In this document: positions 31,155 through 32,238 of the stretch, piece by piece
Position numbering within the stretch: the stretch's first letter is position 1
Layout: each line of letters begins with the position of its first letter
From: a virus
Taxonomy: Duplodnaviria > Caudoviricetes
Virus record (IMG/VR): IMGVR_UViG_3300048598_000575
Span: 1 to 32,238 of that record
Reading direction: 5' to 3' (one strand)
Length of the DNA stretch: 32,238 bases
The notes under the pieces: model-generated
Told to the model about the DNA's origin: nothing
Database searches by the model: none
The model's input: only the letters and a program-made list of their open reading frames with translations
Translations under genes and position numbers: made by a program

Positions 31155-31208
31155 TCATCATGATCCACGAGAGAGATCCCACCCTGTAGATATATCCGTA
31201 TATGTATA

Positions 31209-31243
31209 GACAGCGCCTCTGATTCCGAGGTGCTGTTCTATTT
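31209..31243 (+). terminator. Probable late-operon terminator
   Basis: GACAGCGCCTC-tgattcc-GAGGTGCTGTT followed by CTATTT. Confidence 0.6.
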
Positions 31244-31272: not shown

Positions 31273-31315
31273 ATACCGTTATATGTATTGACAAATACAT
31301 ATAACGGTATATAAT
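31273..31315 (+). promoter_or_regulatory. Consensus promoter inside a perfect 17-bp inverted repeat
   Basis: TTGACA (31288-31293), 16 nt, TATAAT (31310-31315). Repeat: ATACCGTTATATGTATT-gaca-AATACATATAACGGTAT. Confidence 0.88.
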
Positions 31316-31360: not shown

Positions 31361-31714
31361 ATGGAAACGACATTCGCAGCTTTACCGATCAAAGCACACT
31401 TCACGGCTCTCTATAACGGCACCTCATATACTAAAATCGATGGAAAACGAGCTCAGGAAAACGGATACAACGCCGGTTATATGGCCCCAGACACAAAAGT
31501 GGAATGCGCCGAGCTCGACAACAATGTATCTTCTACCCAAACAGTGGCCTCAACAGTTCGCATGGCAACAACCAAACAAATCGCGTACATCACTGATTTG
31601 ATGGCTCGCTACGGGAGAGAGTTCAAAAAACCAGAAAATTTCACGCTGGAAGACGCGAGTAATTTTATCGACACAATTTTGCATGAACCGACCGCTTTGA
31701 ACCTTTTTGACTAA
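31361..31714 (+). CDS. Hypothetical protein
   Basis: AAGGAG SD; C-terminal ATxKQ..YI..L...T..AS..ID helical motif. Confidence 0.8.
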   Translation: METTFAALPIKAHFTALYNGTSYTKIDGKRAQENGYNAGYMAPDTKVECAELDNNVSSTQTVASTVRMATTKQIAYITDLMARYGREFKKPENFTLEDASNFIDTILHEPTALNLFD

Positions 31715-31727
31715 GCCCGAAAGGGCT

Positions 31728-31776
31728 GGTCTATCGGCTGAACGCCGGTACTGATGAGCCCCAGCAGGGCGAAACC
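31728..31776 (+). ncRNA. Type III hammerhead ribozyme
   Basis: GGUC (cleavage after C31731); stem I UAUCGGC/GCCGGUA with loop UGAAC; core CUGAUGA; stem II GCCC/GGGC with loop CAGCA; GAA; ACC pairs with GGU to form stem III. Confidence 0.9.
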
Positions 31777-31794
31777 CAAAAAAAGGAGAAAAAA

Positions 31795-32238
31795 ATGCAC
31801 CCGAACGATGATATGAGCCGCGTTGTCAGCGGAAAACGCTACACTGTAAAAACTGCCATCCTCCTGGCCTCAGACGAATACTGGGACGGCAACAATTTTG
31901 AGCATGGTGGCCGCAACATTTTCCTTTACAAAACCCGCGGCGGAGCATTTTTCCAGGTCACGCTTACCCAGTGGCAGGGAGAAAAAGACACGATCACCCC
32001 ACTCTCCCGTGAAGAAGCGATGGAACTTTATGAAAGTCTGCGCGAGCATGACGTTGATTACGAAAAAGCCTTTGACGCAGTCGTCGAAGAGGCGAACTCT
32101 GGCAGACCCACCTATTTTGATCAGCCGATGCGGCAAACCGCGATCTGGCTGCCTGAGGACATGATCGCCTGGCTAAAATCCACTGGGGGGATGGGGGACA
32201 AAGTCCGTGATTTGATCGCGGAGGCAATGAAAAAGTAG
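31795..32238 (+). CDS. Two-domain protein: uncharacterised N-terminal domain plus C-terminal RHH/BrnA-like DNA-binding domain
   Basis: GKRY...TA..L, LYKT..G.FF, I.PLS.EEA; then GRP...MRQTAIWLPEDMIAWLK....VRDLI..AM. AAGGAG SD. Confidence 0.75.
   Translation: MHPNDDMSRVVSGKRYTVKTAILLASDEYWDGNNFEHGGRNIFLYKTRGGAFFQVTLTQWQGEKDTITPLSREEAMELYESLREHDVDYEKAFDAVVEEANSGRPTYFDQPMRQTAIWLPEDMIAWLKSTGGMGDKVRDLIAEAMKK

Follow-up and report, generated by a model that had tools for sequence, protein, structure and literature searches.

A type III hammerhead ribozyme at a phage gene junction that probably splits an operon transcript without a dedicated switch

What does a self-cleaving ribozyme do between two genes of a phage operon, and does the cut depend on translation of the gene before it? 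The question is raised by the end of a viral record of 32,238 nucleotides (IMGVR_UViG_3300048598_000575, Caudoviricetes), analysed at full length and called the window in the following. Its integrase, primase, terminase, portal, major head and endolysin genes are the gene content of a temperate phage. A preliminary description had proposed that a complete hammerhead separates two genes, here A and B, and that its folding may be coupled to translation. The cassette lies 3' of the endolysin gene in the order terminator-like hairpin, promoter in an inverted repeat, gene A, junction and gene B, and the hammerhead is placed between the co-oriented genes A and B, as is typical of intergenic prophage hammerheads. 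The cassette consists of the following parts:

31209..31237, + strand: terminator-like hairpin after the endolysin gene, from a consensus scan alone, for which shuffles give 1.4 such sites per region
31273..31310, no strand: perfect 17-bp inverted repeat spanning the promoter, candidate operator for the ribbon-helix-helix (RHH) domain of gene B
31288..31315, + strand: sigma-70-type promoter, TTGACA-16 nt-TATAAT, consensus match 12/12
31361..31714, + strand: gene A, 117 aa, whose slot is occupied by different genes in relatives
31712-14, + strand: gene A stop codon, TAA
31783-88, + strand: Shine-Dalgarno (SD) sequence of gene B, AAGGAG
31795, + strand: gene B start codon, ATG
31795..32238, + strand: gene B, 147 aa, an N-terminal domain and a predicted RHH domain (residues 110-147)

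The element at 31728-31776 is a real type III hammerhead ribozyme by its core, its stems and a family model. All core elements were located where the preliminary description had put them, between the stop codon and the SD sequence:

31728..31776, + strand: type III hammerhead, predicted cut 3' of C31731 (31731/31732)
31728-30 / 31774-76, + strand: stem III arms, 3 bp
31729-31, + strand: GUC cleavage triplet
31732-38 / 31744-50, + strand: stem I arms, 7 bp with one U.G
31732..31750, + strand: stem-loop I, with C at position 1.7; first structure of the predicted downstream product
31751-57, + strand: CUGAUGA
31758-61 / 31767-70, + strand: stem II arms
31758..31770, + strand: stem-loop II, GCCC-CAGCA-GGGC, its loop ending in A as in 67/93 copies of the family below
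31771-74, + strand: GAAA

The conserved core (CUGANGA, GAAA and NUH) occurs in order, with the pairs G10.1-C11.1 and A15.1-U16.1. The three helices have 7, 4 and 3 bp, loops close stems I and II, and stem III is open. Loop 2 ends in A, and the U of loop 1 sits at 1.8, with C at 1.7; across the family, position 1.7 is U in 71/93 copies and C in 4/93. A structural descriptor gave a single type III match in the whole window, and dinucleotide shuffles of the window produced a loose match in 2/1000 cases and the 7/4/3 stems in 0/1000.

The Infernal search with Rfam models, which had been suggested as a check, found nothing in the window at the gathering threshold, where RF00008 scored 23.0 bits (E 0.039). 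A covariance model of 50 other phage copies, however, gave 53.7 bits (E 2.6e-15), and its next match reached 9.3 bits. The training rows of this model were 50 of the 56 copies with typical domain lengths, the window being left out. Four further copies, two from other phages and two from orthologous loci, also score under the RF00008 gathering level; the low score of the window thus reflects model coverage, and current Rfam thresholds miss this hammerhead class. RF00008 (clan CL00010) has the same CUGAUGA/GAAA/GUC core, open stem III, hairpin-closed stems I and II and loop 2 ending in A. The window copy differs from it in its score (23 bits vs the 48.5 of the gathering level), its 3-bp stem III, its 7-bp stem I with C1.7 and its setting in a DNA phage mRNA. 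On 20 related loci, Rfam at the gathering threshold returned just a tRNA. The freshwater-2 RNA (RF02980) was rejected as a candidate, as it scored 21.8 bits (E 1) against the 49.9 needed and matched mostly the hairpin and the SD-AUG tail.

The family to which this copy was compared holds 93 non-redundant copies with enough flank, the window included, from 101 distinct cores gathered from sequence-only scans. The stem filter was passed by 30/32 and 10/10 phage loci found with sequence-only patterns and, among the matches listed from larger viral-contig scans, by 49/122 and 56/132 loci. Run on chromosomes of the likely host class, the patterns matched in 29/401 genomes, and 0/30 loci had the stems; annotated phages gave two weak partial matches. 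The phage-copy model, run on 151 genomes of the likely host class, gave two weak matches, L458 and L459 (28.3 and 26.6 bits). In 50 aligned copies, whose rows were pre-selected for pairing, 95.5% of cells are paired (shuffles: 63.5%), and both partners vary in 12 of the 15 pairs. The covariation analysis across related phages envisaged in the preliminary description therefore found a conserved core and covarying stems. Multiple matches were seen on some phage contigs, two or three at a spacing of 0.4-1.5 kb (L285/L286, L347-L349, L398-L400, L364/L365 and L214/L215), and where checked (L286, L353 and L357) they proved to be paired hammerheads lying between small genes. A 581-nt contig of run X10 carries the window ribozyme core at both ends, one letter apart, so another genome may have tandem copies at a spacing of about 550 nt.

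The arrangement hairpin-hammerhead-SD-ATG is a widespread phage layout. Within the 36 nt that precede stem III, 69/93 copies have a hairpin of -7 kcal/mol or lower, compared with 33-43 for stretches of flank further upstream, and the upstream hairpin reaches z ≤ -2 in 36 copies, compared with 5-10; 47 of the 69 hairpins end within 1 nt of stem III. On the other side, 89/93 copies have a frame that begins with ATG no more than 66 nt away, and 58 have an SD-like word. A role of the upstream hairpin as a terminator was rejected, a U tract being present in just 6 of the 69. With upstream frames assigned mechanically, some surely wrongly, the hairpin starts 5-15 nt after the upstream stop in 38/67 copies and within 3 nt of it in 5/67.

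How could this element act on the cassette? We propose, as the probable reading, that the hammerhead cuts the operon transcript after C31731 without a dedicated switch, and probably more slowly than its relatives. Hammerhead cleavage leaves a 2',3'-cyclic phosphate and a 5'-OH. The strong promoter, likely autorepressed by the RHH domain of gene B, would give one message, and the cut would release a gene A message with its 3' end, which carries the 2',3'-cyclic phosphate, buried in the upstream hairpin; this end is predicted to be fully paired at -12.7 kcal/mol. The gene B message would begin with a 5'-OH at stem-loop I, with an anti-SD stretch gone and the SD more open (predicted openness 0.6-0.7, as against 0.4 in the precursor). 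Stem-loop I would cap this product, as had been expected from the first reading of the DNA, and its predicted pairing is 0.89. Decay and translation of the gene B message would then be independent of gene A. It has been reported that 5'-OH ends slow end-dependent decay (10.1101/2020.07.22.216051).

The setting of the cassette gives this message a likely regulator to encode. Gene B had been called a regulator, and its predicted RHH domain and the co-occurrence of a palindrome make that likely. The model of residues 110-147 is a strand-helix-helix of about 40 residues that aligns with CopASO (Z 4.7, rmsd 1.1, 38 aligned) and PutA52 (Z 4.6, rmsd 1.1, 36), and also with NikR, omega and Arc, all at low Z values; the atlas neighbours of the C-terminus are RHH families (0.78-0.81). 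For the N-terminal domain, Foldseek gave no match at E 0.001 or better, and a sequence search gave no solved relative; the best VIA Z was 5.6. A palindrome related to that at the promoter lies upstream in 10/16 distinct full-length gene B loci vs 3/96 loci with the N-terminal domain only, which makes autorepression likely: the RHH domain of gene B would repress the palindrome-bearing promoter. Similar promoters are found upstream of full-length gene B orthologues. The terminator-like hairpin at 31209..31237 likely shields the cassette from late transcription. About 80 nt upstream of the palindrome, at 31190-31212, there is a degenerate second copy of one arm (81% identity), possibly an auxiliary operator. 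A hairpin-loop motif, GGCA-N-R-G-N-CC, was seen in 42/92 N-terminal-only loci (30 with two or more copies), in 0/15 full-length loci and in 0/91 background windows; it is positioned 110 nt before the gene B match (L046-L162, e.g. L055, L057, L091, L092 and L154), Rfam gave no match in those of these loci that were scanned, and it is possibly a binding site for autoregulation.

Gene B has 63 relatives at E 0.001 or better, itself included; the named ones are mostly from Chloroflexota, and the best full-length one is from an uncultured Anaerolinea, so the phage host is probably an anaerolinean. A homologue search with gene A gave no relatives. Its second half, residues 57-110 (31529-31690), weakly resembles DUF3072-like small helical domains (atlas score 0.78; phrog_636 at E 0.0012). 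The record stops at the gene B stop codon. In 5/12 full-length relatives, a third frame overlaps this stop and starts 8-20 nt before the end of gene B, which may mean that the operon does not end with gene B. Four of these five frames look HTH-like by eye, and in the window itself GGAGG followed by an in-frame ATG is seen in the last codons of gene B (32219-32238).

Before the ribozyme, the junction has a hairpin and further stretches that can pair:

31702..31708, + strand: CCUUUUU within the last codons of gene A, pairing partner of 31780-86
31709..31731, + strand: 4-bp extension of the hairpin, GACU 31709-12 / GGUC 31728-31, covering the cleavage triplet
31714-31727, + strand: upstream hairpin, 5 bp, AGCCC 31714-18 / GGGCU 31723-27

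This hairpin does begin on the stop codon, as had been noted, 31714 being the last base of TAA; when extended, it also uses the last codon of gene A. Before the cut, pairing of CCUUUUU with AAAAAGG at 31780-86 can make part of the SD inaccessible. Neither this pairing nor the GUC-covering extension appeared in the preliminary description, which had instead pointed to two alternative pairings, GGGCU of the hairpin with AGCCC of the ribozyme and GCUGG with CCAGC. Both are exact 5-bp complements, but the second one falls away, with a pair probability of 0.0 in every folded context and a fold of only -14.9 kcal/mol. The first one is part of the predicted ground state of 31700-31800, which is inactive: the hairpin arms are swapped with the stem II arms, and CCUUUUU lies on the SD region. 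This swapped fold, which also hides the SD, is predicted at -31.7 kcal/mol, the hairpin extended over GUC at -29.8 and the active fold with the hairpin at -25.2. In co-transcriptional fold snapshots, the extended hairpin appears first. By ViennaRNA, the active fold lies 8.2 kcal/mol above the ensemble in free RNA, the 8th worst penalty among the 93 copies (family median 2.95 kcal/mol).

With such a penalty the window copy could be nearly silent, and it is conceivable, though on balance unlikely, that it is effectively off and that the junction acts like the hairpin-only junctions of other orthologues. The two inactive folds that beat the active one, and the early formation of the extended hairpin, speak for this, as do the 3-bp stem III, which is the shortest class (16/93 copies), the C at 1.7 and the lack of a hammerhead in most orthologues. 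Natural hammerheads have a pair between the U that opens loop 1 and the A that closes loop 2, and in viroid hammerheads loss of this U lowers activity (PMC2632901). In the same report, however, U-to-C changes at that position have smaller, if significant, effects, and the energy model leaves out tertiary contacts and Mg2+ stabilisation, so the penalty suggests slow cleavage and stops short of proof. A further point against a silent copy is its perfect core and fully paired stem I despite divergence from its close relatives, which points to recent selection. Contigs of three public runs differ from the window junction by 7 substitutions and 3 indels, all within stem-loop I, which in these contigs, read by hand, has a 6-bp fully paired stem and U at 1.7; no change is listed in the hairpin, the core or stem II. 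Taken together, the poor fold, the 3-bp stem III and the C at 1.7 suggest that the window copy may be slow.

Could the inactive folds instead be the off state of a switch? In that case, a translation gate specific to this lineage would operate: the ribosome terminating on gene A would strip away the hairpin, a mimic of stem II that also conceals the cleavage site, thus choosing the active core over the swapped and sequestered folds, so that cleavage would occur only when gene A is translated and would set the output of the repressor. The position of the hairpin on the stop codon, with an extension that uses the last codon, would suit such a gate, and the swapped fold would hide the SD as well. 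When the RNA is masked to stop+12, the penalty drops from 8.2 to 2.2 kcal/mol, near the 1.7 of the core alone; masked to stop+6 or stop+9, however, it is 11.1 or 7.6 kcal/mol. The RNA is predicted to be off when free and also when masked to stop+6 or +9, and near the core level at stop+12. A ribosome at a stop codon more likely covers 6-9 nt past it, although this is uncertain. The drop itself is no evidence of design: of the 57 copies with a nearby stop, 20 had a penalty more than 2 kcal/mol lower when masked and none had a higher one, and removal of sequence tends to lower the penalty.

The comparative data speak against this gate. The swap between hairpin and stem II is found in 4/93 copies vs 7.8 ± 2.4 in permuted combinations of flanks and cores, and with longer flanks in 7 vs 9.6 ± 2.6. 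Only the window has a 5-bp match (1.5 ± 1.1 expected), and among the 29 copies with the same stem II it alone has the swap. In L037 and L038, the orthologous loci with a hammerhead, and in L007, the swap is not the main fold. In L037 the hairpin arms do resemble its own stem II, with a swap probability of 0.45 when masked to stop+12, a point for the gate. The hairpin and stem II are also unchanged in the three-run contigs, and this persistence of swap-competent parts in the closest relatives fits shared ancestry and also fits selection; one low-depth contig, uncertain in alignment, keeps the hairpin but has a changed stem II that has lost the swap target. The alternative pairing is neither conserved nor covarying across relatives, family hairpins usually start well after the stop codon, as given above, and gene A differs between phages. 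The translation-coupled switch of the preliminary description is therefore not upheld, the swap being neither enriched in the family nor the main fold of orthologous hammerhead loci, and we regard the gate as improbable. Most likely the hairpin matches stem II by coincidence, and the match reduces the share of active RNA. Since masking to stop+12 leaves a penalty of only 2.2 kcal/mol, ribosomes may still modulate the cut incidentally.

Other possible designs of the flanks were compared with permuted families. An apparent protection of the active fold by the flanks (1.07 vs 1.55 ± 0.17) disappeared once stem III was counted entirely in the core (1.57 vs 1.58 ± 0.15), and we take the signal as a boundary artefact. 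A hairpin built to cover the cleavage triplet was likewise rejected (20/93 vs 22.8 ± 3.6; in a second test, 32 vs 26.8 ± 3.3). Across the family there was no enrichment of a fully paired product end (35 vs 39.7 ± 3.4) or of flank-to-tail pairing of the CCUUUUU:SD type (36 vs 36.7 ± 3.7).

It is also instructive to ask where the hammerhead occurs at orthologous junctions. By descriptor, it is present in 4/127 gene B loci, L037 and L038-L040, the last three being one sequence; the phage-copy model, run on 100 of the 127, confirms the descriptor calls, with L037 and L038 themselves among its training rows. Counted over distinct full-length loci, it is present in 2/16 (two of the 16 loci have short flanks), and it is thus an optional module of the gene A/B junction. 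Several orthologous junctions have a single plain hairpin before the SD and no hammerhead, and L117, whose gene A family is shared with L037 and L038, has the hairpin alone. A recurring hairpin with a CCGG stem and a purine-rich loop was seen before gene B in L001, L042, L117, L151 and L152, and in L287 together with a hammerhead before another gene; in those of these loci that were scanned, there was no Rfam match at the gathering level. Such patchiness could mean that the hammerhead is a mobile passenger, spreading between phage gene junctions by recombination with little effect on its neighbours. The same hairpin type does occur with the hammerhead (L287) and without it (L042, L117, L152), and the three hammerhead-bearing gene B rows grouped in 0/200 bootstrap trees. 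However, no branch of these trees is well supported, so the hammerheads may have a single origin, and the fixed place between hairpin and SD together with the maintained pairing would need selection on cleavage. We therefore hold a mere passenger to be very improbable.

Is the cut transcript of the preferred reading in line with known systems? In prophages, hammerheads have been described on the flanks of single genes, which vary in identity; they were shown to cleave in vitro and in E. coli, and a role in processing long transcripts to the length of single genes was proposed, with regulated cleavage raised as a possibility (Perreault et al. 2011, PMC3088659). The splitting of a polycistronic message, our best reading here, was thus already proposed in that work. 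Compared with those elements, the window has a single copy, and its fixed upstream hairpin and RHH-autoregulated cassette have no counterpart in the main-text passages of that paper that were compared. A search of titles and abstract openings, with few subscription journals, found no translation-gated natural hammerhead and no such hairpin layout. The glmS ribozyme, which self-cleaves in a bacterial mRNA leader, was named in a 2019 review as the sole well-understood bacterial case, the roles of bacterial hammerheads being called largely elusive (PMC6765202). Unlike the ligand-dependent and destabilising glmS ribozyme, the window element has no sign of a ligand site. RNAs cut into units are also familiar from synthetic and phage systems. 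In phage T7, RNase III cuts the polycistronic early transcript into units with structured ends; that processing needs a host enzyme, whereas the window RNA would cut itself and leave a different end chemistry. The RiboJ-type synthetic insulator is a type III hammerhead upstream of a ribosome-binding site that gives a defined 5'-OH end. The window element differs in being natural and intercistronic and in having its extra hairpin 5' of the cut, while that of RiboJ lies 3' of the ribozyme.

If cleavage did depend on translation of gene A, the element would matter much more: gated cleavage would free a stable, SD-open message for an RHH autorepressor and close a feedback loop on the cassette promoter. 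The comparative data make this dependence unlikely. What the family offers in any case is a natural comparison, as the same cassette exists with a hammerhead (the window, L037 and L038) and with a plain hairpin (L001, L042, L117 and L152), so the effect of the ribozyme would be measurable against natural controls.
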